NCBI GenBank assembly: GCA_043764315.1
Contig: JAYUKQ010000071.1
Location: 1 to 50,503, forward strand
Direction of reading: 5' to 3'
Source: a bacterium
GTDB lineage: Bacteria; Patescibacteriota; JACMRA01
DNA: 50,503 nt
Below are positions 19 to 20,052 of this stretch, piece after piece. Every line of letters starts with the position of its first letter. Position 1 is the first letter of the stretch. The translations under genes and the position numbers were made by a program. The notes beneath the pieces are model-generated. The model saw only the letters and a program-made list of their open reading frames with translations. It did no database searches and was not told the origin of the DNA.

Positions 19-1128
19 ATGACTTGGGGCAACCGAGCAAATTCAAATTTTTCTTCTAATCCAGCTTTCAGTACCAACACCCCAAAGCAAAATTCTAACC
101 CAAATCAACCACGCAAAGAAAGTGTAAAGCCAAACTTTCAACTTCAAAACACTAATAGATTCGAAATGATTCCAACTTCCAATCAAGAACTAGAATCAAT
201 GACACCCAACAAACCAACTTCAAAAAACTTATCAAATAATAACAATAGTCAAAGTGTAAACAATTCAAATAATAGCACTCCAAATAATAGCACAAATACC
301 GATATTTTCAACGCAGGTTTAGCAGTTAACAACCAAAGTTTATATTCTTTACCAGACAGTTTTGACTCGGCGGCTAAGATAAGACAATTCTTAAGAGATA
401 AAAATTCTTTTTTGGCTAACTATAAAGTCAATATTAGTTTTGAGTCTGATGACGACATTTTTGATCGAAATCCCAATCTTAGGTCTCAAGTTGGACAAAG
501 TGTAGATTTTGCCGAAATGGTATGGAGGTTAGCTAGAACTCAACTCGGTAACAACTGCACCAAATCCGGAACATGTATCAATAATAGTCAAAAACCTATT
601 AACCCAGCCTTTATTCTTGCAATGATACAACGTGAATCCGGTTTAATTTATGGACCAAACGCTAGACTCAATCCTAACTCCACCGAAGCCAAATTTTTAT
701 TGGATAGAACTACTGGTTTTTTATGCACTGAAACTACAGACAAATCCAAAAGTTGCTGGGATCAAAACCCCGACTGGAAGTATTATAAAGGTTTATTTCG
801 TCAAACATTTTATATGGTTCGTAATTTGAGCCTCAACACTAATCACTGTCAAAATGATGGAGTTAACATGTATGGCAAAACCTACAAAGTTGGAGCAACT
901 GTAACTCATACTAACCAGACATTTATTCTTGAAAATGGTGTGACTTGTGCTTTGTACATTTATACTCCACACACCTTTGCCCAAAAATCGCTATTCAAAA
1001 TAATGAATTATCTGGACGCGAACACAGGTTCTTACAAAACCCAAAACCCAAACAACAACTCAACAAACTCAACAAACACAACAAACAGTACTAATAACAG
1101 TAGATTCAAACTAGTTCCAGCTAATTAA
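19..1128 (+). CDS. hypothetical Asn/Ser/Thr-rich secreted-type protein, possible lysozyme-like (transglycosylase) core; may be 5'-partial
   Basis: 369-aa ORF whose frame is open to the window start. Both termini are low-complexity N/S/T/P. The central segment AFILAMIQRESGLIYG resembles the Glu-Ser catalytic region of SLT/lysozyme-like folds (weak, by eye). Confidence 0.55.
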   Translation: MTWGNRANSNFSSNPAFSTNTPKQNSNPNQPRKESVKPNFQLQNTNRFEMIPTSNQELESMTPNKPTSKNLSNNNNSQSVNNSNNSTPNNSTNTDIFNAGLAVNNQSLYSLPDSFDSAAKIRQFLRDKNSFLANYKVNISFESDDDIFDRNPNLRSQVGQSVDFAEMVWRLARTQLGNNCTKSGTCINNSQKPINPAFILAMIQRESGLIYGPNARLNPNSTEAKFLLDRTTGFLCTETTDKSKSCWDQNPDWKYYKGLFRQTFYMVRNLSLNTNHCQNDGVNMYGKTYKVGATVTHTNQTFILENGVTCALYIYTPHTFAQKSLFKIMNYLDANTGSYKTQNPNNNSTNSTNTTNSTNNSRFKLVPAN

Positions 1129-1263
1129 ATTATACTTTATATTGACCATCAAAAAAATTTATCCTGAATTTATTTCAATATCTAAAAATTCAAATATTAT
1201 TTTTATTGAAATAGAAGTTGTGTCAAAATTATCTACCCAAGACAAAGTGATATTTTTTATCAC

Positions 1264-1288
1264 AAAAAAACTTCCCTATTAAAGGAAG
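1264..1288 (-). terminator. rho-independent terminator downstream of tRNA-Cys
   Basis: The minus strand reads CTTCC-TTTAATAG-GGAAG followed by TTTTTTT, 19 nt after the tRNA 3' end. The stem is only 5 bp. Confidence 0.4.
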
Positions 1289-1306
1289 TGTATGTATTAG
1301 CATTAT

Positions 1307-1380
1307 TGGAGGCATCTAGCGGAGTCGAACCGCTCTGGAAGGTTTTGCAGACCTCTGCCTAACCGATCGGCCAAGACGCC
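1307..1380 (-). tRNA. tRNA-Cys (anticodon GCA)
   Basis: The reverse complement folds as a cloverleaf. Acceptor is GGCGTCT/AGATGCC, the anticodon loop CTGCAAA gives GCA, the T-arm is GGTTCGACTCC, the discriminator is U and CCA is encoded. Confidence 0.9.
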
Positions 1381-1509
1381 CAAATATTTAGTTTTCTAAT
1401 TTATTGTATCTAATTTATGTGTTAAATAACTCACATAATCTTAACAACCATATTTGACAATGTCAAGTTTCTAAATCAATTTTTTGATATTTAACCTCTT
1501 AATTTTATC

Positions 1510-2073
1510 ATGAAATCAATCACCAACTTATCAAATGAGCAAAAAATAACCTTAGTTAGTGTTTTATTCAGTTTTATATTTTTATGGCTTATGGGCGCCA
1601 ATGAATTCAAAAATAATTACCTTAATTACTCCACTGCCCTATCTTTTGCAGGATCATTATTATTTTTAAAAACTTTTTTATTCACAACACTTCAATCTGA
1701 AACTCACTTAAAAACTAAGAATTGGTTCAGCTTTGGTCTAGATATTCTACTTTGTTACTCACAAATCTATCTCCTAATGCAAGGTGTTAGGTATCTCAAT
1801 CAAAGTAGCGATCCATTTAATACACTTTGGTTTTTCTTGGTTTCGTCAGTTATTTTTTTTGCACAAGTTTATATTACCAAACAGATCAAATTGTTTACAA
1901 CTTTGATAATCGAAATTGCCCTCTTTGCCGTTTTAACTCTAACGTTACATTTGATTAACATATATACACCTGAAACGCAAATTTACCTTTTAGTACAAGT
2001 TGCAGTTGCATATACTGGATTAGCCTTTTCTTTTTATAGTTACTTTACAATGCTCAAAAAAACAATAGAATAA
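1510..2073 (+). CDS. hypothetical polytopic membrane protein
   Basis: 187-aa ORF with about 5-6 hydrophobic helices. No recognisable motif. Confidence 0.6.
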   Translation: MKSITNLSNEQKITLVSVLFSFIFLWLMGANEFKNNYLNYSTALSFAGSLLFLKTFLFTTLQSETHLKTKNWFSFGLDILLCYSQIYLLMQGVRYLNQSSDPFNTLWFFLVSSVIFFAQVYITKQIKLFTTLIIEIALFAVLTLTLHLINIYTPETQIYLLVQVAVAYTGLAFSFYSYFTMLKKTIE

Positions 2074-2313
2074 AAGAATTTTTAGAAAAATTAACATTGC
2101 CAAAAACTTCTAAAGAGTACACGAATTACATCTCAAATACTTAACTCTTAACTAGTTATCCCAGTAATTAGACAATATCCCAAATCAAATCATCTATTTT
2201 TGTTTATCTATGTTTAGGCATAATACTATATAAAAATGTTTGTTTCCGAGTTATTGTTAATCAAAAACAAATCATAATTGACAAGATAACCAATCCAAAC
2301 TTGGCTTTAACCT

Positions 2314-2817
2314 ATGAAATCAATAATTTATTTGGGCGGAGGTTGCTTTTGGTGCCTAGAAGCTGTCTTTCAGAGAATCCAAGGTGTAACGAGTGTTGTA
2401 TCTGGTTACATCGGCGGAACAATAGAGAATCCAACTTACGAACAGATTTGCCAAGGAGATACTGGTCACGCTGAAGTTATTAAGATTGACTTTGACACAG
2501 ATACAATTAGTCTTGACAAAATCCTAGAGATTTTCTGGTCGGTGCATAATCCGACAACACTCAATAGACAAGGCAATGATATGGGAACTCAATACCGATC
2601 GGGAATTTATTACATAGACCAATTGCAATTACCTATAATCCAACAAAATATACAAAAGGAACAACTCAACTGGTCAGATCCAATTGTCACTGAAGTGGAA
2701 CTAGCCAAGACTTTTTACGAAGCTGAAAAATATCATCAAGATTATTACAATCAACATTCTTGGCAACCCTATTGTCAATTAGTTATTAGACCAAAGTTAG
2801 ACAAAGTCAGGAAATAA
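2314..2817 (+). CDS. msrA: peptide-methionine (S)-S-oxide reductase MsrA
   Basis: N-terminal GGGCFWCLEAVF catalytic motif, plus the HNPTTLNRQGND.GTQYRS and KYHQDYY motifs typical of MsrA. Confidence 0.95.
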   Translation: MKSIIYLGGGCFWCLEAVFQRIQGVTSVVSGYIGGTIENPTYEQICQGDTGHAEVIKIDFDTDTISLDKILEIFWSVHNPTTLNRQGNDMGTQYRSGIYYIDQLQLPIIQQNIQKEQLNWSDPIVTEVELAKTFYEAEKYHQDYYNQHSWQPYCQLVIRPKLDKVRK

Positions 2818-3019
2818 ATTAATATAGCTCTTTTAAATTAATTATGTTATAACTTTCAACTTTTACAAAATAACTTTTTGATAGATTAAAACTATTAAAG
2901 TATAGTATATTTAGAATCAAAATTAGAACTGTAAACTGCAAATATAAATACAAGTTTTTTGTTGAGAGAGATAACTTCCATTGACAATCAGATGTATATT
3001 TGGTTCAATAAATATCATT

Positions 3020-3376
3020 ATGTCTAAAGCTAAAGTTCTCAACGCAGCATCATTTGAAGAAATGAAAAACCAATCAGGTTACTATCTAATTGATCTTTGG
3101 GCAGAATGGTGCCCACCATGCAAAGCGATGTCGCCAGTAATTGATTCACTTTCACAGGATGCTGATTTGAATTCAATTACATTTTTTAAGTGTGATGTAG
3201 ATGATCAAACGGAAATTGCCGATTTTTTTTCTGTAAGTTCAATTCCAACCTTTCTTCTCATCAAGTCCAAAGGTGATGGAAGTCTCAATCTAACAACTGA
3301 CATTATCAAAAAAATAGTTGGTACCAAATCACCATTTGACTTCAAAATTGCTCTAAAGTCAGCCATCAACCAATAA
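3020..3376 (+). CDS. trxA: thioredoxin
   Basis: WAEWCPPCKAM active site (a WCxxC variant) and SIPTFLL cis-Pro region. The ORF-track start at 2981 is TTG and overlaps a TTGACA box, so ATG at 3020 is preferred. Confidence 0.88.
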   Translation: MSKAKVLNAASFEEMKNQSGYYLIDLWAEWCPPCKAMSPVIDSLSQDADLNSITFFKCDVDDQTEIADFFSVSSIPTFLLIKSKGDGSLNLTTDIIKKIVGTKSPFDFKIALKSAINQ

Positions 3377-3429
3377 TCAATCAATAAACACAACCCTCAA
3401 AAAGGGCTTTTTTATTTTATCAAAATTTT

Positions 3430-3684
3430 ATGTACTGTAGTTTTGGAATTTTTAATTATATCTTTGGTTTTATAAGTATATTACTCATTATAACCTTGAT
3501 TTTGATTGGTCTCAATTTGACTCATCGAGGTTTTCAAAAAAAACTACTAAAACCAGTTTTGATACCTTTTTTTGTTATTCTTGTATTTTGTTCTGTCAAC
3601 GTTGTATCTTCAAGCCAAAAGCTAATTGATAGGATTGAGCCGACATTTTGCCTCAAAGTAAGAGATATTTATATTAAAAAGTAA
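3430..3684 (+). CDS. hypothetical small membrane protein
   Basis: 84-aa ORF with two hydrophobic helices. There is no homology signal, so coding status is uncertain. Confidence 0.35.
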   Translation: MYCSFGIFNYIFGFISILLIITLILIGLNLTHRGFQKKLLKPVLIPFFVILVFCSVNVVSSSQKLIDRIEPTFCLKVRDIYIKK

Positions 3685-3686
3685 AC

Positions 3687-4328
3687 TTAAGGATGTAAGT
3701 TGAGCTGCATACAAAAATTCCACAAATCAGTTTGCTCTTTGAGAATTTGTTCTTGTGATAAATACTTATTCAGCCTTAAAAAACCATGAAAGCCCCACTC
3801 ACAACCTATAATTCTATCAATACCAAACAGTTCTTTTAGTTCCAAAATATCACTTACGGTATCAGTGAAGTAATAACAATCGGTAGGTTTGACACCCCAA
3901 GAATCACAAACCAAATTAACCTTACACTCTTTACTACTACTAGTTTCAAAACCATAAATAAATTCAAACATGGAAGACTTAGAACCCAAAATATCTTTAA
4001 TGTAATAACTAAAACCAGAAGAAACTATAGCCAATTTGTAATTTTTGGTGTTGTTAATGTCAGTAATTTGTTGAACGAAGCCCTCAAATAAACTCGGTTT
4101 AGCTTGTATCAATTTGTCACATAGGTGTTTCAAAAAATACCAATCTTTTTCCTTTTGTTCAGGACTTTTTTCCAAAGATAAAACAGGTTTACTAAAATAA
4201 TTCAAAAATTGTCTTTTGACTTCATCCAAGTCAGTGGTTCCATAAATTAATGATTCAGCGATAATTTTGATGCAAGGTTCAAGACTATCACAAATAACAC
4301 CATCAAAATCGAATATAAAGTAGTTCAT
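3687..4328 (-). CDS. HAD-superfamily hydrolase (phosphatase-like)
   Basis: HAD motif I FIFDFDGVICDS at the N-terminus, motif II (AIVSSG) and a C-terminal acidic motif region. Confidence 0.8.
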   Translation of the reverse strand: MNYFIFDFDGVICDSLEPCIKIIAESLIYGTTDLDEVKRQFLNYFSKPVLSLEKSPEQKEKDWYFLKHLCDKLIQAKPSLFEGFVQQITDINNTKNYKLAIVSSGFSYYIKDILGSKSSMFEFIYGFETSSSKECKVNLVCDSWGVKPTDCYYFTDTVSDILELKELFGIDRIIGCEWGFHGFLRLNKYLSQEQILKEQTDLWNFCMQLNLHP

Positions 4329-4356
4329 TTTTAATATTTTAATAATTTTTTTTAGT

Positions 4357-4379
4357 AAAAAACCTTCTTTAAAAGAAAG
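4357..4379 (-). terminator. rho-independent terminator after the 4416..5600 gene
   Basis: The minus strand reads CTTTCTT-TTA-AAGAAGG (7-bp stem with one G-U pair) followed by TTTTTT, about 37 nt past the stop codon. Confidence 0.45.
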
Positions 4380-4415
4380 TTGAGTTTGTGTTAAGTTTTA
4401 TGTTGTAATCTATTA

Positions 4416-5600
4416 TTAGTCAGCTGTAATTGGTGGTGGTGCAATACTATCTTCAGAAACCTTAGTACTAATATTAGTACCTGCAGGTATTCCACAGTTT
4501 TTTGATATGTAACCTTTTTCTAGATCATCGGTCGTTGCTCCAACTCTTGTCAGAGTGTCTTTTGTGTTTTGATGAAGTGGGTTTGAATTAGCTTGACTAG
4601 CAATTTCTCCAAGCCTAAACGTATCCATCTTAGTTGTAGTAACTGCATTTGAATCATAACAGTTAGCAACTTCAGAACCATCTGAAAACGTATCGCTATC
4701 ACTATCTTTTGCCTTTGGATTAGAAAAATAAACTTTGACTTCGTCACCGTCGCTCAATCCATCACTATCAGTGTCAGCTTGGTTTGGGTTAGTTCCATAA
4801 ATGTATTCTTCTAAGTTGGATAATCCATCGTTCTCTGGATCGGCTTTTTCGGAACATATACTAAGAATTTTGCAAGATCCGTCAGCTGTTACAGCTCCAG
4901 CTGTAGTTTTAAAATTTTCCTGAACCCAAATTTTTGGTAATTTAGTAGCTCCAGAATTAACAATTGACTTGCCAGCTGGTGTGGATGGATCTGGCGTATT
5001 TTTGACTACTCCATTTTTTGTAGATTTGGTAGTTGAGCTAGATTTTGTTGTAATGTCAGATTTTTCTGTTTTAGTTTCTGAAGAAGTATTAGAAGATACT
5101 ACAGCAATTTTGGTCTGATTATTGGTTATAGCTGGTTTTGAATTTTGTGAATTAATAATGTATAGTGCAACACTAGCCACAAGCAAAATTACCATTAATC
5201 CAATCAATCCAAAGATTAATATTTTTTTGGTGTTACTTTTTGGATGATCGACAACCTCTTCTTCAAACTCCTCTAATGGTTGATTATTTGGCGTGTAGTT
5301 GTAACCATTAACTTGATTGTTAAAATCGGAATTTTCTCCAGAATAAGGAGTGTAGTCAGATATATTGGAAGGATTAATAGGAGCTACACTTTGATTAAAA
5401 TTATTTGCTGTGGGATATTGATTAATTGTCGTATCAAAAGATTGTTGTGGGTTAAAATCTGATAAAGATGGATTGTATTGATTAGCAACAGGTTGTGATT
5501 CAAAATTAGGATTGTAATTAGGATTGTAATTAGGATCAAAATTGACTGGTAAATTAGGGTTGGTTACAGGTTGAGGGTTAAATTGGTTATTATCCGCCAT
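4416..5600 (-). CDS. membrane-anchored surface protein with thrombospondin type-3-like Ca-binding repeats
   Basis: N/P/Q/Y-rich N-terminus, one TM helix (ILIFGLIGLMVILLVASVALYII) and an S/T-rich linker. These are followed by DPENDGLSNLEEY and DTDSDGLSDGDE / DSDSDTFSDGSE acidic repeats. Confidence 0.7.
   Translation of the reverse strand: MADNNQFNPQPVTNPNLPVNFDPNYNPNYNPNFESQPVANQYNPSLSDFNPQQSFDTTINQYPTANNFNQSVAPINPSNISDYTPYSGENSDFNNQVNGYNYTPNNQPLEEFEEEVVDHPKSNTKKILIFGLIGLMVILLVASVALYIINSQNSKPAITNNQTKIAVVSSNTSSETKTEKSDITTKSSSTTKSTKNGVVKNTPDPSTPAGKSIVNSGATKLPKIWVQENFKTTAGAVTADGSCKILSICSEKADPENDGLSNLEEYIYGTNPNQADTDSDGLSDGDEVKVYFSNPKAKDSDSDTFSDGSEVANCYDSNAVTTTKMDTFRLGEIASQANSNPLHQNTKDTLTRVGATTDDLEKGYISKNCGIPAGTNISTKVSEDSIAPPPITAD
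5506..5536. repeat. 12-bp tandem repeat (about 2.6 copies) encoding NPNY repeats
   Basis: ttaggattgtaa occurs twice in tandem, then ttaggat. It lies inside the 4416..5600 CDS and encodes NYNPNYNPNF. Confidence 0.7.
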
Positions 5601-5622: not shown

Positions 5623-5651
5623 ATTTTAATTTAGTTTTTCGTACTTGTCAA
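5623..5651 (-). promoter_or_regulatory. sigma70-type promoter for the 4416..5600 gene
   Basis: The minus strand reads TTGACA-17 nt-TAAAAT, placing the start site about 15 nt upstream of ATG 5600. Confidence 0.5.
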
Positions 5652-5683
5652 AATGTTTATTTAGCTATAAACTATTGCTAACG

Positions 5684-6373
5684 ATGGCTATTAACCTAAA
5701 AAATCCTACTCCAAATAAAAATAAAAATGTTGCCTCTAGTCTAAATTTTTTGCAAATTGCAGAGATTAGAGATAGTGTTTTAGTTTTGCGTGAATCTCAA
5801 ATTAGGTGTATTTTAGCAGTATCTTCAACCAACTTTGCCCTAAAAAGCCAACAAGAACAAGAAATGATCATTGGTACGTTTCAAGGTATACTTAATTCCA
5901 TAGATTTTCCCATCCAAATTGTAATTCAAAACAGACGAGTCAACCTTGATAATTATATTGAAAAACTAAAAAACCTTCAAGACACCCAAACTAATGATTT
6001 GCTTAGAGTTAAAATGCAAGAATACATTGAGTATATTCAAAATATAATTAAAGAAGCTAACATTATGGAAAAAAACTTTTACATTGTAGCTGGATATGAT
6101 CCAATTTCAATCAAAGAAGGTATTTTTGGGAGTTTTTTGAGATCACTTAATCCTGCACGAATAGTCAAACAAAAACAAGAAGATTTTTTGAAGAACCGCA
6201 AAATGATCATGACAAGAGTTGATGAAATTGCCTCCAAAATGGGAGGTTTAGATCTCAAAGTTTCACTTTTAAATACAGAGCAACTAATAGCTTTGATGTA
6301 CAACTGTTACAATCCAGACACAACTGACTCTATTCGATTAAGAGATATTTCTAGTATTGATGTGGAAATTTAA
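5684..6373 (+). CDS. stand-alone protein resembling the N-terminal (non-ATPase) domain of Gram-positive-type VirB4/TraE/TcpF T4SS ATPases
   Basis: The pattern IAEIRDSVLVLRESQIRCILAVSSTNFALKSQQEQEMIIGTFQGILNSIDFPIQIVIQ...NFYIV matches my recollection of VirB4-family N-domains. There is no Walker A/B. ATG 5684 is preferred over TTG 5645, which overlaps the divergent promoter. Confidence 0.5.
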   Translation: MAINLKNPTPNKNKNVASSLNFLQIAEIRDSVLVLRESQIRCILAVSSTNFALKSQQEQEMIIGTFQGILNSIDFPIQIVIQNRRVNLDNYIEKLKNLQDTQTNDLLRVKMQEYIEYIQNIIKEANIMEKNFYIVAGYDPISIKEGIFGSFLRSLNPARIVKQKQEDFLKNRKMIMTRVDEIASKMGGLDLKVSLLNTEQLIALMYNCYNPDTTDSIRLRDISSIDVEI

Positions 6374-6389
6374 CAGCTGATCTAGAAAT

Positions 6390-7304
6390 TCATTTGGTAC
6401 TTTCTATTCTTGTCCAAAGATTATCTTTTTTAGATACACCATCTAGCCAAATTAGAATCCAGAGATATAGTCGAAGTGGAAATAATATCAAGCTATAAAT
6501 TAATTCAAGTGGACTTTTGGCATATTTGAAAGGAAAAAGAAAGAAGGATAATTCGCTCCACAAACTTCTAGTTTTACCAGCATAAAACAATTTTGGAAAA
6601 TCTTTTTTTAATTCACGATAACCTCCAGCTGATCGTCTTTTTTGGTTTATCCAGTCAGTCAAATTACTAGGATATTTGATTTTTACCGTAGCTCGTGGTT
6701 GGTAACCTATTTGATAACCCTGCTCTATAATCTGACAGCTAAATTGAGCATCGTCGATTAATGTGTTAAAAGGCAAGTCTTTAAGTAATTTTTTTTGGTA
6801 AGCAACCAAATAACCACTAACAAAATAAGATTCACCTAGTTTATACACTTCATTACGTTTGGTATGAGCTGCATCAGCCAGAAGGTGACCAATATATCCC
6901 CAAAAATTACTCTTAGAGTCATTAGAAACTGGTCTACCAGAAATTGCTCCTAAACCACTTATTTCATTTGAGTCAATTGTCTTGATTAAGTTATCAATAG
7001 AATTAGCGTCCAAAAAAACATCTCCATCAGTACATATTACCCAATCAGCGTTGATCTGACTTAAAGCTAAATTCAGAGCTGATGGTTTACCCTGACCCAG
7101 ATCAGTTAAAATAATAAAATTACTTAATTGATTCCACTTAATAGCTGAATTTTGAGCAACTTGTTTAGTTTCATAATCTGGAGCTGAAAGATAAACTGTC
7201 ATACACTGATTAAAATTATTATTTTTTGGGTCGAATATTGAATCAAGTAATTTGGCTACAGTTGGCTCTTTATAAGCTGTTATCAATATTGCTATGCTAG
7301 ACAT
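6390..7304 (-). CDS. family 2 glycosyltransferase
   Basis: The N-terminal ILITAYKEP motif, the DGD (DxD) motif in CTDGDVFLD and C-terminal TM helices are typical of GT2 enzymes. Confidence 0.85.
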   Translation of the reverse strand: MSSIAILITAYKEPTVAKLLDSIFDPKNNNFNQCMTVYLSAPDYETKQVAQNSAIKWNQLSNFIILTDLGQGKPSALNLALSQINADWVICTDGDVFLDANSIDNLIKTIDSNEISGLGAISGRPVSNDSKSNFWGYIGHLLADAAHTKRNEVYKLGESYFVSGYLVAYQKKLLKDLPFNTLIDDAQFSCQIIEQGYQIGYQPRATVKIKYPSNLTDWINQKRRSAGGYRELKKDFPKLFYAGKTRSLWSELSFFLFPFKYAKSPLELIYSLILFPLRLYLWILIWLDGVSKKDNLWTRIESTK

Positions 7305-7348: not shown

Positions 7349-7777
7349 TTATTGATTAATAATCAAAGCGTAGTGACCAGTAGCTACAAAATCTGCTCCA
7401 AGTGACATTGCTTTTTGATAGAATATGCCAAACTTAATATTACCATTACACATAACATCAGGATTAGGTGTGCGACCACAATTATATTCATCAATCATGT
7501 ACTTTACGACTTTTTGATAATATTCTTCTTGAAAATCCCAAATTTCAAAGGGTATTTTGAGCTTATTAGCAACAATAGCAGCGTCTTGGATATCATCCTC
7601 CCAAGAACAATCATACAGATCAACTGATAGTTTCATTCGATTGATTTGATCCATTGACCAACATTTCATAAAAACACCAATAAGATCGTAATTATTTTTC
7701 TTCAAACTAGCGGCTGCGACCGATGAATCAACTCCACCAGATAACATTACATAAACTTTTGATTGTGAGTTAGACAT
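7349..7777 (-). CDS. mnmA: truncated tRNA 2-thiouridine synthase MnmA (N-terminal PP-loop fragment only; probable pseudogene)
   Basis: SGGVDSSV PP-loop, GRTPNPDVMCN and ATGHYA motifs align with about the first 135 residues of MnmA (full length about 360 aa). The ORF then ends LIINQ-TAA, 45 nt from the next gene. Confidence 0.8.
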   Translation of the reverse strand: MSNSQSKVYVMLSGGVDSSVAAASLKKNNYDLIGVFMKCWSMDQINRMKLSVDLYDCSWEDDIQDAAIVANKLKIPFEIWDFQEEYYQKVVKYMIDEYNCGRTPNPDVMCNGNIKFGIFYQKAMSLGADFVATGHYALIINQ

Positions 7778-9155: not shown

Positions 9156-11564
9156 TCAGTATTTTTTACGTATAACAAAATAGTAATACGAACCACCACC
9201 GACAATACCAATTCCCAATAAAGCCATGTAAAGTCTAAAGTCTAAAAATATATTTGTGCTGGCTACAATGTCAGAGTCTGTTTTGAATAATGTTAAACTA
9301 CTATTTTTTGATAACTTGGGTTTGTTGTCAGCTAAAGCTACTTTTGAATCAGTATCATCGGAAGTTGTATTAAGTGGTGTATTCTTACTTGAAGAGGACA
9401 TTGTATTGTCACTATCTATAGAAGATTTGGTGGTGGAACTAATAGATTTAATCGAAGATGATTGGATTTCTACATCTTTACTTTTAGTTTCAGTTAATAT
9501 ACTTTTTACAGAACTTGCAGAGTTAATTTCAGAACCAAAAATAGATGAATTGTTCAACTTAGTATCATTTGCAATTAATCGTGTATTAGAAATTGCAGAA
9601 CGAATCGGTGTAGGTTTGTCTTGGATAAATTTGTTAATGTTGCGTCTACTTTGATCGACCAAAAAGGCAATACTATCAGATTGAGTAGCGTTTGGAACTA
9701 CATTAGAGTTAAATGTCAAGGTTGTAATACTTGGAGCAATTTGAGGAGGAGTTGGAAGAGGGGTTTGAGGTGTTAGAGATGAAAGTGGAACTTGACTAGA
9801 AGACGTTGCTACTTGTCCATATGTAAGTGTATTTATACCTAGTAGTTGACTATTATTTGAAGCGATAGAACTAGAGATTAAACTAGAGTAGGAGTTGGAA
9901 GAGGAACTTGAACTAATATTTGATTTTGAACTAGAACTGCTGGAAATTAAAGACGAACTAGAGGTTGAACTAGAGCTGCTGCTTGAAGTTAAACTTGAAG
10001 TTAAACTAGAAGATGAGGAGGAGCTGGAAGAAGAGCTGGAACTACTACTGCTTGAACTTGAAAATGAACTACTGCTTGAGTTTGAACTAGAACTGCTGGA
10101 ACTGGAAGAGGAGGAGTTTTGATTAACACTAATTGGATTAGTTGGGTTATTTTGATTCCATGCAATTACCATCTGTTGAAAATTACGAGGAACTTGCGAC
10201 ACAAAATAAGTTACACCATCAAAAGAATAAGCTACCTGAAAATTTTGCAAAGAGGAAAAGTTCGTTGGATCTATTACCATATCACTACAATCAATAACTC
10301 CGTTATTCAAAGGACAACCACTGTGATCCGATGCAAGTTTGTAATCCCCCAATGTCTGGATATCAACTATTTGTGAATATATAGTATTATTTAGATTAGT
10401 ATTATTAGGTTGAGTGGTGTTAAGATTACACTTTATTACAACATCTGAATTAGGTTTTTTGATTACAGCACAAGATTCTGATTGTAAATTAGTTAAATTA
10501 AGTTCATTAGTTTGATATATAAATGGAAAATTAGTTGGTTTGACAGTATAACCAGAAGCACCACCAAAAAGATTTAGAATTTTTTGAACTTGTTTTCTAT
10601 TAACCATTCCCAAAATTGGCATCCCAGTATCGTTCATTATAGAGGTAATACTTGATTTGACTTGACCTTTGTTCTGATCGCTGGTACAACCTGTACCTAC
10701 AGTATAATTAGTTTGTAGATTACTAGAAGGAGTCAAACTGTACCCATTTAGGTTACGATAATTCAACACTTCAGAATAAAATGGATCCAACTGACCAATA
10801 GAATCACCCCACCATCTTGTTGCCATTGATTGATTAATAGCACAATTACTTTTCACCATAGTGACATATTTACTGTTAGGTTCTACATATTCATCACCAA
10901 GAGCAAAAGCAGCGTGTAATAATTCGTGAGTCAAGATTTGTGGCGCATTGGGTCTTAGCGAGCCGTTAGCTTCTAACCAGTAAAATTGCTGAACAGAACC
11001 AGATTCATAGTATTTTGGATTTTTAGTATCAAAATTTTCAATAATTACAGCTGGATAAGCATACGATCTAAGACCTGGATTGTCGCGTACATCCAAAAAA
11101 ATTGGAACTGGATATTGCAAATAAAATGGATTAACTTGAGTTATTTGACTCATAAAACTAGATCTGTCTGCTCTAGAAATTGAATCTTGATAATACCAAA
11201 CATTAAACTTTTGCTTGTTAGTTTTGAATGGTTCTGTGGCAAAAAGTCCATAATATCCTGCAACTGGAAGACCATCTTCTTGTAATATATCTCTTAGTAA
11301 AGATAATCTATCTATATTCGTTGGCGTATTAGCCGAAAAAGCAAACACCAAATTGATTCTATCTGCGGTTCGTGAATTAAGTTGACTAGAATACAACGGT
11401 TGCAATTTGTTAGAATCTATTGTATAGGAAGAAACCCAAATACCTTTGAAAGCAAAGGGAACTAGTAAACTAGCCAAAACTAGCCAAATTTTTATGTGCA
11501 AACTAAAGTGAAATGTGATTAACTGCTTCCAATCTGTTTTTTTGGAATTTAATCTAAAGAGCAT
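9156..11564 (-). CDS. surface-anchored putative zinc metallopeptidase (M64/IgA-peptidase-like HExxH..GDEY) with long poly-Ser tract
   Basis: N-terminal signal/anchor, then THELLHAAFALGDEY (HExxH followed by a GDEY-type third ligand region, as in family M64). This is followed by an approximately 80-residue Ser run, an S/T-rich tail and a C-terminal TM helix plus RKKY. Confidence 0.6.
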   Translation of the reverse strand: MLFRLNSKKTDWKQLITFHFSLHIKIWLVLASLLVPFAFKGIWVSSYTIDSNKLQPLYSSQLNSRTADRINLVFAFSANTPTNIDRLSLLRDILQEDGLPVAGYYGLFATEPFKTNKQKFNVWYYQDSISRADRSSFMSQITQVNPFYLQYPVPIFLDVRDNPGLRSYAYPAVIIENFDTKNPKYYESGSVQQFYWLEANGSLRPNAPQILTHELLHAAFALGDEYVEPNSKYVTMVKSNCAINQSMATRWWGDSIGQLDPFYSEVLNYRNLNGYSLTPSSNLQTNYTVGTGCTSDQNKGQVKSSITSIMNDTGMPILGMVNRKQVQKILNLFGGASGYTVKPTNFPFIYQTNELNLTNLQSESCAVIKKPNSDVVIKCNLNTTQPNNTNLNNTIYSQIVDIQTLGDYKLASDHSGCPLNNGVIDCSDMVIDPTNFSSLQNFQVAYSFDGVTYFVSQVPRNFQQMVIAWNQNNPTNPISVNQNSSSSSSSSSSSNSSSSSFSSSSSSSSSSSSSSSSSSSLTSSLTSSSSSSSTSSSSLISSSSSSKSNISSSSSSNSYSSLISSSIASNNSQLLGINTLTYGQVATSSSQVPLSSLTPQTPLPTPPQIAPSITTLTFNSNVVPNATQSDSIAFLVDQSRRNINKFIQDKPTPIRSAISNTRLIANDTKLNNSSIFGSEINSASSVKSILTETKSKDVEIQSSSIKSISSTTKSSIDSDNTMSSSSKNTPLNTTSDDTDSKVALADNKPKLSKNSSLTLFKTDSDIVASTNIFLDFRLYMALLGIGIVGGGSYYYFVIRKKY
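9862..10115. repeat. low-complexity Ser-codon tract (degenerate AGC/TCN repeats)
   Basis: About 250 bp of imperfect gaa/cta/gag/ctg triplet iterations on the plus strand encode poly-Ser on the minus strand. The tract also creates the spurious antisense Glu/Leu ORF 9895..10122. Confidence 0.8.
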
Positions 11565-15310: not shown

Positions 15311-15432
15311 AGTGTTTCAAAAGTCGCAGACAAAAAATGGTATGTCAAGTGTACATAAACCAAATATAAACTAAAACTAAAAGTGTTTTGGATTTACAAC
15401 GGAGCCTATCTATGTTATACTAAGTCAATACT

Positions 15433-16884
15433 ATGATACCCAAAAAACAAAAGATAAACTGGGGGAAAAACTACTTTAGATTCGAAAGCTTACTCCTGAT
15501 TGCTAACATTTTTTGTATTGTGTTTTTTTGTTGGCAAATGTTTAGTCCCATTTGGTTTGGTGGTAATTGGAATCTATTAACCTTATTTTTGAGTTTATTT
15601 TGGGCAATAGGTGGGCAATTCATGATTGGAGTCGAAACCAGAGGAATGCTTGATGATGCCATGGCTAGTAAAGCTGTGAGTTTTTTTTATAGACAACCGA
15701 TTAACAAATATACTTTTTTGAAGCTAACGGTGCCAAAAGAATCTTCCTATAGTCTGGATAATCTAAAAGAATTTTTTTATTACATACATTCAGCTCAACA
15801 GTTTAGTGATTTTAGTAGTGAAAAAAGATTAAACTACGGAATTGGTAGTTATGAAGCTTGCTTTGACATTGTAATAACTCAATACGATGTAGAAGTCTAT
15901 ATGGCATTTTCTACACTCAATATTAACTATCACCAAAAAAGTTTTGAGTATTATCTAAAAGATATTAAATATGAATTAAGTGACAATCCTTACCAATCAC
16001 TACCAAAAAACTGGTACGACAAAGATGGTGCAGGCGGATACGAATGTTTGGCTGGTATGGCTCTTGGTTACACTATGAGTAATATGTATCATTCAGCCCA
16101 AATCGATTTGGAACAGGATTCTAACTTCCCAATTGACAACATGATTGAACAAATTCAAAAACAACTACAAAGTCAAACAGTTTACTTACAATATGTTTTT
16201 AACTTCGAAAATAGTCGATTACACGACTCAATCAGACCATCGATCAAAAAATTAAGACAAAGTATATATGACAGATTCTCTCTTAAGTTGATCAAACCAA
16301 ATAACAACAAAGAAGTTCTTGAAATACTTTTGCCAGAAATAGAGAAAAAACGCCTCGGTAGTATGGAAAAACGCATCAAAGAAAGTAGTGAACTTATATC
16401 TTCAACCATCAAAGTAATGGCACTATGCACAGCTAAAGAATATTCTGAAACTGAAAAAATCCTTGAAAAAGCACTAAAAGGCAATCATCGCAAAACTAGA
16501 AAAGAAGAAAATGAAATAGAGATTATATATTACACAGCTACTAACCAGAGATATTTTAATCTTTCACAAAAGCCCTCACCTTTTAGTATTCCTTACATGA
16601 ATAGTCTATACTATTTTCCACCAAGATGGCTAGAACCATTTGTTTCTAATCTGTACGATAATATTTTTTATTATAACGAAAATCGCTGGAGGCGGCAAGT
16701 AATATATAGAAGAATTCTAAGTAGGTCAGGTCAGTCTCCATGGCAAAACAAAAATACTATATTAGATCTTAACACTCTGGTAAGCGTTTTTCAAATTCCC
16801 AAAACTGGCACTCGAAATGAGTTAAAAAAAGGAAGTCTACACGACTTAAATTTACTAAGAGATATAGAAGCAGTTCAAGAATAA
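15433..16884 (+). CDS. membrane protein, paralog A, resembling the N-terminal non-ATPase module of CPR T4SS coupling-protein/DUF87-type ATPases
   Basis: Two N-terminal TM helices, then FLKLTVPKESS, EACFDIVITQYDVEVYMAF, YLQYVF and a terminal ILDLNTLVSVFQIP. There is no Walker A. It is clearly paralogous to the next ORF. Confidence 0.6.
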   Translation: MIPKKQKINWGKNYFRFESLLLIANIFCIVFFCWQMFSPIWFGGNWNLLTLFLSLFWAIGGQFMIGVETRGMLDDAMASKAVSFFYRQPINKYTFLKLTVPKESSYSLDNLKEFFYYIHSAQQFSDFSSEKRLNYGIGSYEACFDIVITQYDVEVYMAFSTLNINYHQKSFEYYLKDIKYELSDNPYQSLPKNWYDKDGAGGYECLAGMALGYTMSNMYHSAQIDLEQDSNFPIDNMIEQIQKQLQSQTVYLQYVFNFENSRLHDSIRPSIKKLRQSIYDRFSLKLIKPNNNKEVLEILLPEIEKKRLGSMEKRIKESSELISSTIKVMALCTAKEYSETEKILEKALKGNHRKTRKEENEIEIIYYTATNQRYFNLSQKPSPFSIPYMNSLYYFPPRWLEPFVSNLYDNIFYYNENRWRRQVIYRRILSRSGQSPWQNKNTILDLNTLVSVFQIPKTGTRNELKKGSLHDLNLLRDIEAVQE

Positions 16885-16894
16885 TCACTCCAAA

Positions 16895-18259
16895 ATGTCA
16901 AAATTCAACCCTTATCGATACTACCTAAACAAGGAAAAAATATCTTGGAAAAAAGCTTTTTGGACGATAGTTGTAGTTTTGAGTGTTGCTTTTTTGTTTT
17001 GGATTTTGGGTGTAACTTGGTTATATCAATTCCAGTTTGGTAATATGTGGCAAAAGCTTGTATGGAATTTAGTTCTAATTTGGGTAGTTGGTGGAGTATA
17101 TTTTGTGCTAGTCAAATACACCGAACAGTGGGACGAATCACTTATAGATATACAAAATGGCAAATACTTCACTTCCAAATTTCACACTCGTGAGACTTAT
17201 CAGTTAATTATCCCTGAAGATCAATCCAAACCAATTAATTACAGCGAGTTTTTTATATCGCTTAGTCACTCACTAAAAACTGTGAACGCAACCAAAGAAA
17301 ATGATTTTAATATAGGCAAAAAACCATTATCACTGTTCTTTGACTTCATCGCTGAAAATCGTAAACTCAAAATTTATGTAACAGCTTCAGGCTCCAAAAT
17401 CCGCGGTATAACAGATGCTATGACTAGACATTGTCCAGATATAAGATTAGAAAGAGTTCCTGATCCTCTTAAGTATCTAAAAGATGATTTTAAAGCTGGA
17501 AAGTTAGACTTGGATAATATAGCTGGTTTTGCACTTACTCTGAATCAATCTAATATGTTTCCATTTGGGCTAATTGAAGATGCTGCACATGAACAAGAGT
17601 CAATTAAGACACTTCTACAAGGTATTATTGATTCCAGTGCCAACAAAATGATCACACTGCAATATGGTTTTTTGTTTAGTGATGGTCATCCTCAAGACAA
17701 ATACCAAAAAGAATTTGATGAATATATGTCCAGTTTAACGGAGCAATACAACGCAAAATTTGAAAATAAAAGTAAAAGTGTAAAAAGATTATTCCCCGAA
17801 TCCAAAATCAATGACTACAATGGAGTGTACAAACGACTGAATAGTATTTGGTTCATGGCAGCTATGAGAACTATATGTTATGACACTTCAGGCGCAGACA
17901 ATCAACAAAGAATGGAGAGCATGTTTACATCATTTTTGAGAAATCCCAAATCACCTCTGGATATTAATTATCTAACCTCAACTAGACAAACTTACTATAA
18001 GTTCACTAAAGACAGTAGGCACCCAGAAGCTGACGAAATATACGACAATCTTGTTTTTCCACCTGAAGGTGTTTTGGAAACTTGGATAGCTCCAATGTAT
18101 GAAAAATATTATTATCCACAAGAAAGTAGACTGCGAAAAGGAACAATGCTTAGATCAATCTACCTTCGTAATCCAATGCAACCTTGGCATCCCAAATTCA
18201 CTTGGATGGACACTAATGTTATTAAGTGCTATTTTTGTCTCCAAGATAAATTCAAATAA
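16895..18259 (+). CDS. membrane protein, paralog B of the preceding gene
   Basis: Same architecture (2 TM helices plus a soluble domain). C-terminal conserved blocks are shared with paralog A: FPP..LE...Y..YY..E.R.R......R....PW. No nucleotide-binding motif. Confidence 0.6.
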   Translation: MSKFNPYRYYLNKEKISWKKAFWTIVVVLSVAFLFWILGVTWLYQFQFGNMWQKLVWNLVLIWVVGGVYFVLVKYTEQWDESLIDIQNGKYFTSKFHTRETYQLIIPEDQSKPINYSEFFISLSHSLKTVNATKENDFNIGKKPLSLFFDFIAENRKLKIYVTASGSKIRGITDAMTRHCPDIRLERVPDPLKYLKDDFKAGKLDLDNIAGFALTLNQSNMFPFGLIEDAAHEQESIKTLLQGIIDSSANKMITLQYGFLFSDGHPQDKYQKEFDEYMSSLTEQYNAKFENKSKSVKRLFPESKINDYNGVYKRLNSIWFMAAMRTICYDTSGADNQQRMESMFTSFLRNPKSPLDINYLTSTRQTYYKFTKDSRHPEADEIYDNLVFPPEGVLETWIAPMYEKYYYPQESRLRKGTMLRSIYLRNPMQPWHPKFTWMDTNVIKCYFCLQDKFK

Positions 18260-18281: not shown

Positions 18282-18821
18282 TTATCGCTTAGGAATATCC
18301 AGAATCTCGAAAGAATCTAAGACTTCACCTTGTTCGCCATATTTGACTTGGTATTTGCCTTTGGCTAGATTCTTGACCTCGCAACCAATCATAAAGTCTG
18401 ACTCTGCCTTGGGGTTATTAGGAATACCTCTAGCTTTGATTATAATTTGGTTATCTTTGAGCTGACAGTCTAATTCTTGAATTTTAATGGATTTTATTGA
18501 ATTTGCACTGTGGTATGCAAATGGGTTTTTTGACATATAAGGTTCAATAACTTTCAAATCTAGGTTATTGTTCAATATACCACCCAAAACTACTACATTT
18601 ATTTTATTTTCATAATAGTTATTAACTAAATTAACTTTTGTTTTGAAACTACTAAAATTACTTTTGTCCAAAGATAAACGGTATTGGTTCAAGTTATTTT
18701 GATAATTACTATAGTTAAATGAATTGATAAGATTAAATATATATAGCGACACTCCTATAGCTAACAAAATTACAATAACTGTAAAGCTTACAATGATAAT
18801 TTTAATTTTACCACTGAGCAT
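18282..18821 (-). CDS. hypothetical N-terminally anchored protein (overlaps the upstream gene by 14 nt)
   Basis: 179-aa ORF with one TM helix (IIIVSFTVIVILLAIGVSLYIF). It is translationally coupled to the ricin-lectin gene. Confidence 0.6.
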   Translation of the reverse strand: MLSGKIKIIIVSFTVIVILLAIGVSLYIFNLINSFNYSNYQNNLNQYRLSLDKSNFSSFKTKVNLVNNYYENKINVVVLGGILNNNLDLKVIEPYMSKNPFAYHSANSIKSIKIQELDCQLKDNQIIIKARGIPNNPKAESDFMIGCEVKNLAKGKYQVKYGEQGEVLDSFEILDIPKR

Positions 18822-20052
18822 ATGAATTATTCATTTGATTGTAAAGCTCGGTTGGTAGCGGGACAATTCCCCACCATTTGTAATTCAGACCAACTCCATC
18901 GTATTTTTTCCACAGATCTACAGCGTAGTTGGTACAGTTAGCAAAAGCTAAATCGTAACTTCCACCGTCGTTAAGGTCTCTTCCTACAGTAGCGTTTACA
19001 AAAAATCTAGCCATTACAGTTATTGAGTAATATGACCAATATGGTATAAACCACCACCAATAGCCACCATTTTGCATATCATATGTTAATTGTTGAATTA
19101 AGTTGTTTTCATTAGTATAATATGGAATTGCAAAACCCGCACCTCTGATATCATTAGCTTGAGATTGATTAATGTTTTTGATTTTAAAAGCCGCTCGATT
19201 TTGCTGTTTATAATTCCAATTATTATACGGTTGATTGTGAAGATCGTTAGCCCACGTTTGGTCTGGATTACTATAGTAAGTTGGTTGATTCCATCCATTT
19301 ATCAAATTAACCTCAATAGATCCCATGTTTTGACCATAAGATTGAACTTGTTGAATACATCTATCAGCTAAAGCATTCCAAGCATAATTAAGACTATAAC
19401 ATCGATCATCCTGACCAGACCAGAATCCATAAGTTGAATTTTCAGATACATGATTCCAGTCATCCATTTTTTGAATAGCTACCCAAGAATGACCAACATC
19501 GCTGGTGTCACCACCGTAAGGAAAACCTCTTTCAACGAATAGCTTCATCTCATAGCTTCCAGCTCGAAATTGTTTTGTCCACGCATTACAATTGAATAGA
19601 AGTAAACTTTCTCCAGCATTGCCAGTATAAGTATCAATGCACCAATAAGTATTATCTTTAAGTCTAATCCTACCTTCTGTATCATACACCCATTTTTGAG
19701 CTGAAGATCCGTTACAAGTCCAGAGTTTGATTGGTTGAAAATTAGTTCTATTATTACCATACAGATCAACACACTTACCTCCTACAACGATAACACCATC
19801 TGTGTTTAAATAAAATTTTTGATTCCAATTGTTGTTCCAATTGTTGTTTTTGTACCAGATACCAATATTTGCTCCATCGTTAGTATTCCATCCCCGCAAA
19901 TCTATGGTTGTATTGCGGTGTTCACGCATATTAACATAATTAATATTAACACAAACATTAGACCAAGAGTTACAAATTTTTGAAAAATAGCGATAATTGA
20001 AATGAGGAGTAAGATTCTTCATAAAATGAAACATTACAAACAAAAAAGACAT
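18808..20052 (-). CDS. ricin-type beta-trefoil lectin fused to a putative His/Cys (permuted papain-like) hydrolase domain
   Basis: Three QxW/QxF repeats (NQKFYL, AQKWVY, TKQFRA) within about 130 aa are typical of ricin B lectins. The C-terminal domain has VGHSWVAI ... FANCTNYAVDLW, reminiscent of LRAT/NlpC-P60 permuted H...NC motifs (speculative). Confidence 0.6.
   Translation of the reverse strand: MSFLFVMFHFMKNLTPHFNYRYFSKICNSWSNVCVNINYVNMREHRNTTIDLRGWNTNDGANIGIWYKNNNWNNNWNQKFYLNTDGVIVVGGKCVDLYGNNRTNFQPIKLWTCNGSSAQKWVYDTEGRIRLKDNTYWCIDTYTGNAGESLLLFNCNAWTKQFRAGSYEMKLFVERGFPYGGDTSDVGHSWVAIQKMDDWNHVSENSTYGFWSGQDDRCYSLNYAWNALADRCIQQVQSYGQNMGSIEVNLINGWNQPTYYSNPDQTWANDLHNQPYNNWNYKQQNRAAFKIKNINQSQANDIRGAGFAIPYYTNENNLIQQLTYDMQNGGYWWWFIPYWSYYSITVMARFFVNATVGRDLNDGGSYDLAFANCTNYAVDLWKKYDGVGLNYKWWGIVPLPTELYNQMNNSYAQW

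Follow-up and report, generated by a model that had tools for sequence, protein, structure and literature searches.

The 50,503-nt Patescibacteria contig stretch examined here (JAYUKQ010000071.1; hereafter the window) carries two adjacent genes, gene A (15433..16884) and gene B (16895..18259), whose products are best explained as the membrane-anchor halves of a split motor resembling type IV coupling proteins, docking in trans a soluble ATPase encoded on another contig, C44, of the same genome. We give this explanation a probability of roughly 0.6, with the docking, its stoichiometry and the cargo as the parts that we infer. With the matching motor most likely encoded by a separate gene elsewhere in the genome, the locus arranges in a new way a machine that is already known, though uncharacterised; what is new is that anchor and motor are unlinked across the class and that the anchor has repeatedly duplicated and decayed.

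Two intact, stand-alone genes

The initial annotation, made from the sequence alone, had described two open reading frames (ORFs) of 483 and 454 amino acids (aa) separated by 10 nt, each with two N-terminal transmembrane (TM) helices and a large soluble domain, alignable in their C-terminal blocks and devoid of a P-loop, and this description holds throughout. Both genes lie on the forward strand with that intergenic gap, and their products are collinear paralogs, C-terminal blocks included (BLASTP E 2e-30, 22% identity across 450 residues). Exactly two hydrophobic segments per protein, N-terminal in both and followed by ~400 soluble residues, are found in a hydropathy scan and recur as hairpins in AlphaFold2 (AF2) models, and a motif scan detects neither Walker A nor Walker B motifs in A or B. 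The positive-inside rule predicts an N-in/C-in topology for A, with the large domain cytoplasmic, since its N-terminus carries five Lys/Arg residues and the inter-helix loop is uncharged. The motifs to which the annotation had drawn attention are only partly shared: all are present in A (LKLTVPKE, FDIVITQYDVEVYMA, LQY and LDLNTLVSVFQIP), and the terminal one is degenerate in B (MDTNVIKCYFCLQ, without Pro).

Neither Pfam nor NCBIfam yielded a significant family for A or B. A profile built from 13 sequences, scored exhaustively against 1.84 billion representative proteins, found 67 relatives, all of stand-alone length (at most 669 aa), among which a P-loop occurs only as one chance match and the longer members bear Asn/Gln-rich tails past the terminal motif and no ATPase. 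Close homologues are few and measure 383-483 aa, with A-type and B-type genes sharing contigs. In the closest relative, L080, the tandem pair recurs with identical stop positions (76% identity for A, 72% for B), in synteny with the upstream IMPDH-ClpP-YkuD block, and genome G004 also has such a pair, ending at the same positions, so that the architecture is not an assembly artefact. Moreover, both genes are under purifying selection: the ratios of nonsynonymous to synonymous divergence (dN/dS) against L080 are 0.084 for A and 0.081 for B, similar to the 0.106 of the neighbouring IMPDH gene, values that are approximate because dS is saturated.

These observations bear directly on the notion that truncation or a frameshift of an ATPase gene, pseudogene decay or an assembly artefact could account for A and B, which is already refuted for both genes. 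Decay does occur in the family, a fourth paralog on contig C68 being interrupted by a frameshift as well as by TGA and TAA stops within the frame, and its partly syntenic counterpart in G003 being broken too. A and B themselves, however, share their architecture with independent assemblies, combine low dN/dS with confident predicted folds, and lie in a window without ATPase-like coding sequence: tblastn with three ATPase domains found no remnant in any frame (best E = 0.57), which disposes of the frameshifted downstream ATPase domain that the annotation had considered.

Relationship to fused coupling-type ATPases

Three proteins of this genome give DUF87-type matches: an 856-aa protein on contig C119, in which a TM region and ~400 aa without Pfam match precede a VirD4/TraD-like P-loop; an 852-aa VirB4-like protein on contig C39; and a 444-aa, TM-less ATPase of TrwB/TraG-D type (TrwB_AAD_bind/TraG-D_C domains) on contig C44. 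The second-iteration family profile matches residues 31-314 of the C119 ATPase (E 5e-17), with an alignment that extends beyond the TM region and covers the soluble motifs. In hhalign comparisons, the 68-sequence family alignment gives a probability of 97.9% with C119 and, as alignment A2, 98.8% (E 1.3e-16) with residues 43-355 of P0083, a fused protein of 885 aa annotated with PF26449, TrwB_AAD_bind, T4SS-DNA_transf and TraG-D_C. Judged from these profiles, the A/B family is homologous to the N-terminal module (N-module) of PF26449-bearing proteins, as the annotation had proposed for the N-domains of fused ATPases of the type IV secretion system (T4SS) kind. The TM hairpin ahead of the module is likewise a trait of PF26449-type ATPases; the P-loop ATPase that follows the module in the same polypeptide is a trait that A and B do not have.

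The point at which A and B end is equally informative. Both hhalign alignments stop at an LxxxELxxxFHLP motif ~70 residues before Walker A, so that the two ORFs terminate at the start of the linker that leads to the ATPase, as the annotation had proposed. The counterpart of the terminal motif of A in fused proteins (LNIEELASVFHLP / LNVEETNTLWHLP) stands at this same distance ahead of the ATPase in the hhalign and hmmsearch alignments. A protein search with the 68-sequence alignment recovered mostly close relatives again, with two fused PF26449 proteins among the matches listed, and a PDB sequence search with the family profile gave no match.

One AF2 model was made for each protein, with a pLDDT of 87.2 and a pTM of 0.85 for A and corresponding values of 91.3 and 0.88 for B. 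In each model, a helical hairpin is joined by an alpha/beta domain and a long helix at the C-terminus. Their best PDB fold matches are TrwK/VirB4 chains of R388 (A: E 2e-3; B: E 4.8e-5, ranks 1-6; probabilities 0.98-1.00), and a VirB4-like fold is proposed for the cytoplasmic domain. The best viral matches are fused proteins of 825-913 aa from Bacillus phages G and JL (E ~1e-11, TMq 0.43-0.45).

Motor clades and the candidate partner

A tree of the ATPases resolves the Patescibacteria motors into two clades with 100% support. Clade 2, which includes the C119 protein, is fused wherever sampled. Clade 1 includes C44 and is represented in this class by a motor that is TM-less and alone; among 15 genomes sampled from other families, 11 carry it in fused form and three as two adjacent genes (G039, G032 and G037, with gene gaps of 15-99 nt), and one gave no match. 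The search for a stand-alone ATPase that the annotation had recommended thus yields a TM-less motor of the matching clade in the same genome.

Which clade the anchors belong with was approached through profiles. A narrow A1 profile could not separate clade-1 from clade-2 N-modules, all of which scored below 15 bits, and a class-wide profile was therefore built only from this class's stand-alone genes and scored against the N-module groups. The three split-adjacent membrane halves score 99-106 bits, the clade-1 fused modules a median of 59 bits, the clade-2 modules of other families a median of 40 bits, and this class's own clade-2 modules a median of 19 bits. By these scores, the split-adjacent membrane halves are the nearest relatives of the A/B family, ahead of all fused modules. 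In the N-module tree, the stand-alone genes form one long-branched clade (100%), and an approximately unbiased (AU) test does not reject its grouping with clade 1, which has a slightly better likelihood (p = 0.57); only this test and the profile scores favour clade 1 for the anchor family.

The surroundings of the C44 motor (L029) hold three further genes without Pfam matches: a divergently transcribed membrane protein gene and, downstream of the motor, genes for an acidic protein and for a Lys/Glu-rich, probably coiled-coil protein. It is possible that these neighbours are partners or substrates.

Distribution and duplication of the anchor

The class was sampled through 27 species genomes from two families. 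A stand-alone anchor gene is present in all 27, and a TM-less clade-1 motor in 26 of these anchor-bearing genomes, the exception being G009. As a single copy, the anchor adjoins infC in several genera, in some of them with prfB on the other side. It has been duplicated independently in G019, G009 (in tandem), G014 and G003 as well as in this genus, which amounts to at least 4-5 separate events, and TM-less motors are duplicated too in some genomes.

Three anchor lineages exist in this genus: the A-type, the B-type and a third type, represented in the present genome (G000) by an intact gene on contig C19 (L031) that follows ftsK on the same strand after 198 nt; G001 has a fragment of this lineage near ftsK in a different orientation. 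The FHxP-type motif and the C-terminal block are kept in A and in the C19 copy. The broken fourth paralog (contig C68, L032) was considered as a case of recoding, which was rejected because its in-frame stops include TAA besides TGA; since the copy at the partly syntenic locus of G003 (C74) is also full of stops, the pseudogene may have arisen before the two species separated.

Weighing the explanations

The annotation had left two alternatives, a separately encoded motor and a motor-less derivative with a role of its own. The former is now the better supported, through the TM-less C44 motor and the closeness of A and B to split halves, and the latter less so. Docking of C44 is favoured because a TM-less motor, otherwise anchorless, occurs in 26 of the 27 anchor-bearing genomes, because the family is related in an orthology-like manner to the adjacent halves found elsewhere, and because A and B conserve the C-terminal block that, in fused proteins, connects to the ATPase.

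Several findings weigh against this explanation. None of the 27 class genomes has the anchor linked to an ATPase gene, and nothing else ties A or B directly to C44: here the motor lies on another contig and the 50-kb window encodes no ATPase, and G021, whose genome is closed, has its single anchor gene 360 kb away from the clade-1 motor. Nor do the copy numbers of anchor and motor vary together from genome to genome. In G009 the tandem anchor pair is intact, yet the search for a clade-1 motor gave no more than a fragment riddled with stops, a case that is not conclusive because this genome is 84% complete. Furthermore, the N-module tree does not place the family relative to clades 1 and 2, its attachment being blurred by long branches. 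On the structural side, the TrwK/VirB4 fold matches have low TM-scores (TMq 0.27-0.30), the aligned TrwK region is not reported by the tool, and hhalign detects no relation to pGO1 TrsD (0.3%) or to the genome's own VirB4-like protein (0.2%).

The class-wide unlinking and the G009 pair beside an apparently decayed motor would also suit motor-independent derivatives, in which the N-module took on its own membrane role after fission, for example as a scaffold or regulator. The same may be said of the recurrent lineage-specific duplications, with anchor paralogs within one genus only ~28% identical compared with 66-69% for the motor, and of the loss of the terminal Pro-containing motif in B. We nevertheless hold this to be unlikely: every anchor genome but G009 shows a TM-less clade-1 motor that itself has no membrane attachment, the genes for the family's nearest relatives lie 15-99 nt from their motor genes, and A and the C19 copy retain the very block and FHxP-type motif that lead to the ATPase in fused proteins.

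A partnership with another ATPase of the FtsK/HerA superfamily, whether in mixed rings with C119, with FtsK or with the VirB4-like protein, is quite unlikely. Each of these three ATPases already brings an N-terminal region of its own, and the lowest profile scores are those of the class's own clade-2 modules, even though the family is homologous to the clade-2 N-module too and its predicted fold resembles VirB4. The proximity of the third paralog to ftsK on C19 and in G001 was considered in this context; in most genera, the single-copy gene sits by infC, in some of them with prfB on the other side, away from ftsK and virB4.

Returning to a split motor with C44 as the partner, the following course of events may be proposed. 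Two motors of this kind, ancient paralogs of each other, are found in Patescibacteria. In this class-level lineage, clade 2 has stayed one polypeptide (C119) and clade 1 persists only as a soluble, TM-less ATPase (C44), its ancestral N-module having presumably become a separate gene by fission; linkage to the motor would then have been lost in the class ancestor and the anchor duplicated afterwards. Fission together with loss of linkage in the class ancestor is the simplest history. Today, A and B would be co-transcribed and seated in the membrane, where their cytoplasmic domains would dock the soluble hexameric C44 ATPase and rebuild in trans what the fused C119 protein has in cis, acting either as a mixed platform or as alternative anchors.

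A further-reaching idea, which we consider quite unlikely, is that the multiplied anchors (A, B and the ftsK-linked copy) serve as exchangeable adaptors that recruit one motor to different sites, partners and cargos, in a manner that may be likened to specificity subunits. Were this true, repeated anchor duplication and fast divergence would be how these bacteria diversify the machine. In a stronger version of the idea, some anchors may now be motor-free, as G009 hints.

Genome G009 also carries, on contig C2 (L093), a fused clade-2 ATPase that is 63% identical to that of G028, a member of a different family, and that groups with it, away from the class of G009 itself; this placement suggests horizontal transfer or contamination of the bin.

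Comparison with known systems

The fused ATPases of Patescibacteria with TM region, PF26449 N-module and VirD4/TraD-like ATPase (P0083, C119) have in common with A and B the TM hairpin and a collinear N-module (hhalign 98-99%) that ends at the same FHxP-type motif as in the A family, and a fused Bacillus phage protein, Gp156 of phage G, is a fold match to the family (foldseek E 1.6e-11). A and B differ from them in having neither the P-loop ATPase nor its ~70-aa linker; their conserved block of C-terminal helix (FPPxWLEP...YYxxExRxR...PW) is also longer, the clade-2 fused proteins having it in shortened form. The membrane halves of the split motors in G039, G032 and G037 come closest: they are the best-scoring relatives, measure 394-446 aa, share the end point and belong with a clade-1 motor. 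These halves lie immediately upstream of their motor, whereas the anchor of this class is unlinked, has housekeeping neighbours (IMPDH/ClpP in this window, infC/prfB in other genera) and is repeatedly duplicated.

Type IV coupling proteins (T4CPs) such as TrwB of R388, VirD4 and TraD/TraG share with the partner motors the TrwB_AAD_bind, T4SS-DNA_transf and TraG-D_C domains, and their typical two-TM N-terminal anchor is present in A and B. Classical coupling proteins, however, have no ~350-aa N-module between anchor and ATPase and are located with relaxase or T4SS genes, in contrast to A and B, which have neither an NTPase domain nor a conjugation context; no relaxase or mating-pair-formation gene is found among their window neighbours. 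As regards the VirB4 N-terminal domain, the chains of R388 TrwK (PDB 7O42/7O43/8RTD) provide the best PDB fold matches, at the TM-scores given above, but A and B are not adjacent to virB4 and resemble neither TrsD nor the VirB4-like protein at the level of sequence profiles.

The annotation had also connected the locus with T4SS-like genes and the epibiotic lifestyle of Patescibacteria, a connection that proves loose and is not established. T4CP homologues, of which 5,713 were counted in 2,918 Patescibacteria genomes, lie mostly far from virB4, and that of S. epibionticum is non-essential for epibiotic growth by Tn-seq and may be exapted (PMC12102498).

Significance

Patescibacteria carry about two coupling-protein-like ATPases per genome, without known function (PMC12102498), and the only catalogue entry for the fused family is a Pfam DUF (PF26449), on which full-text literature searches returned no paper. 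Against this background, one whole class in which the anchor and motor halves are independent, unlinked genes, and in which the anchor half duplicates and diverges, presents the machine already cleanly taken apart for interaction and reconstitution work, and the anchor paralogs provide a handle on what the motor is coupled to. In annotation pipelines, the anchors are liable to be filed as hypothetical membrane proteins and the motors as orphan soluble VirD4.

Gene layout and surroundings

The features discussed are collected in the table below. The promoter-like site upstream of A is a pattern match only, and an mRNA starting from it would be nearly leaderless; with this site before A and no terminator-like site between A and B, co-transcription of the two genes is plausible.

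Table. Coordinates of the genes and sites discussed, in the window unless another contig is named
Feature	Position	Strand	Description
Gene A	15433..16884	+	483 aa; stand-alone N-module: two-TM hairpin, alpha/beta cytoplasmic domain, ~30-aa tail
Gene B	16895..18259	+	454 aa; tandem paralog of A with identical architecture; ends 6-8 residues past the degenerate terminal motif
TM hairpin of A	15472..15633	+	Residues 14-41 and 48-67 (hydropathy); AF2 helices 10-37 and 45-87
TM hairpin of B	16949..17125	+	Residues 19-46 and 54-77 (hydropathy); AF2 helices 19-45 and 51-93
Terminal motif of A	16762..16800	+	LDLNTLVSVFQIP; counterpart of LNIEELASVFHLP / LNVEETNTLWHLP in fused proteins (hhalign and hmmsearch alignments)
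Promoter-like site	15393..15421	+	TTTACA, 17 nt, TG-TATACT; 11 nt before the ATG of A; consensus scan 10/12 matches, extended -10 TG
TrsD/TraC-like gene	5645-6373	+	229-242-aa protein, no Pfam match
MnmA-like ORF	7349-7777	-	142 aa
Peptidase-like gene	9156-11564	-	802-aa protein
Lectin gene	18808-20052	-	414-aa ricin-type lectin protein
Third-type paralog	G000 C19 (L031) 930-2495	-	521 aa, intact
ftsK	G000 C19 2694-5072	-	
Fourth paralog	G000 C68 (L032) 1766-3247	+	Broken by frameshift and in-frame stops
Membrane protein gene near motor	G000 C44 (L029) 2706-4139	-	477 aa, divergent from the TM-less motor
Acidic protein gene near motor	G000 C44 (L029) 5652-6008	+	118 aa
Lys/Glu-rich protein gene near motor	G000 C44 (L029) 6019-6870	+	283 aa
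Fused clade-2 ATPase	G009 C2 (L093) 1983-4430	-	

The window neighbours of A and B are of housekeeping type and encode IMPDH, ClpP, a YkuD transpeptidase, a ricin-lectin protein, LepB and DnaA. Two genes for probably secreted proteins flank the region, namely the ricin-type lectin gene and a gene whose product has a weak Peptidase_M64 match.

Elsewhere in the window, the TrsD/TraC-like gene has an orthologue in L080 that carries PF26593 'TraC-like', and its product shows weak collinear BLASTP similarity to pGO1 TrsD (E 0.006, residues 38-108 against 40-111). TrsD/TraC-like proteins are said to resemble the VirB4 N-terminal domain (PMC12102498), and this product is probably a TrsD-like (VirB4-N-terminal-like) T4SS component of the kind described there. 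The gene is unlinked from the VirB4-like gene on C39, and its product is unrelated in sequence to A and B, with hhalign finding no relation to the A/B family (probabilities of 0.1-0.3% across such tests). Finally, the MnmA-like ORF matches the N-terminal HUP domain of MnmA alone (tRNA_Me_trans, profile positions 2-130 of 202), and since its L080 orthologue is short too (148 aa), the short form is conserved and does not reflect an assembly break.

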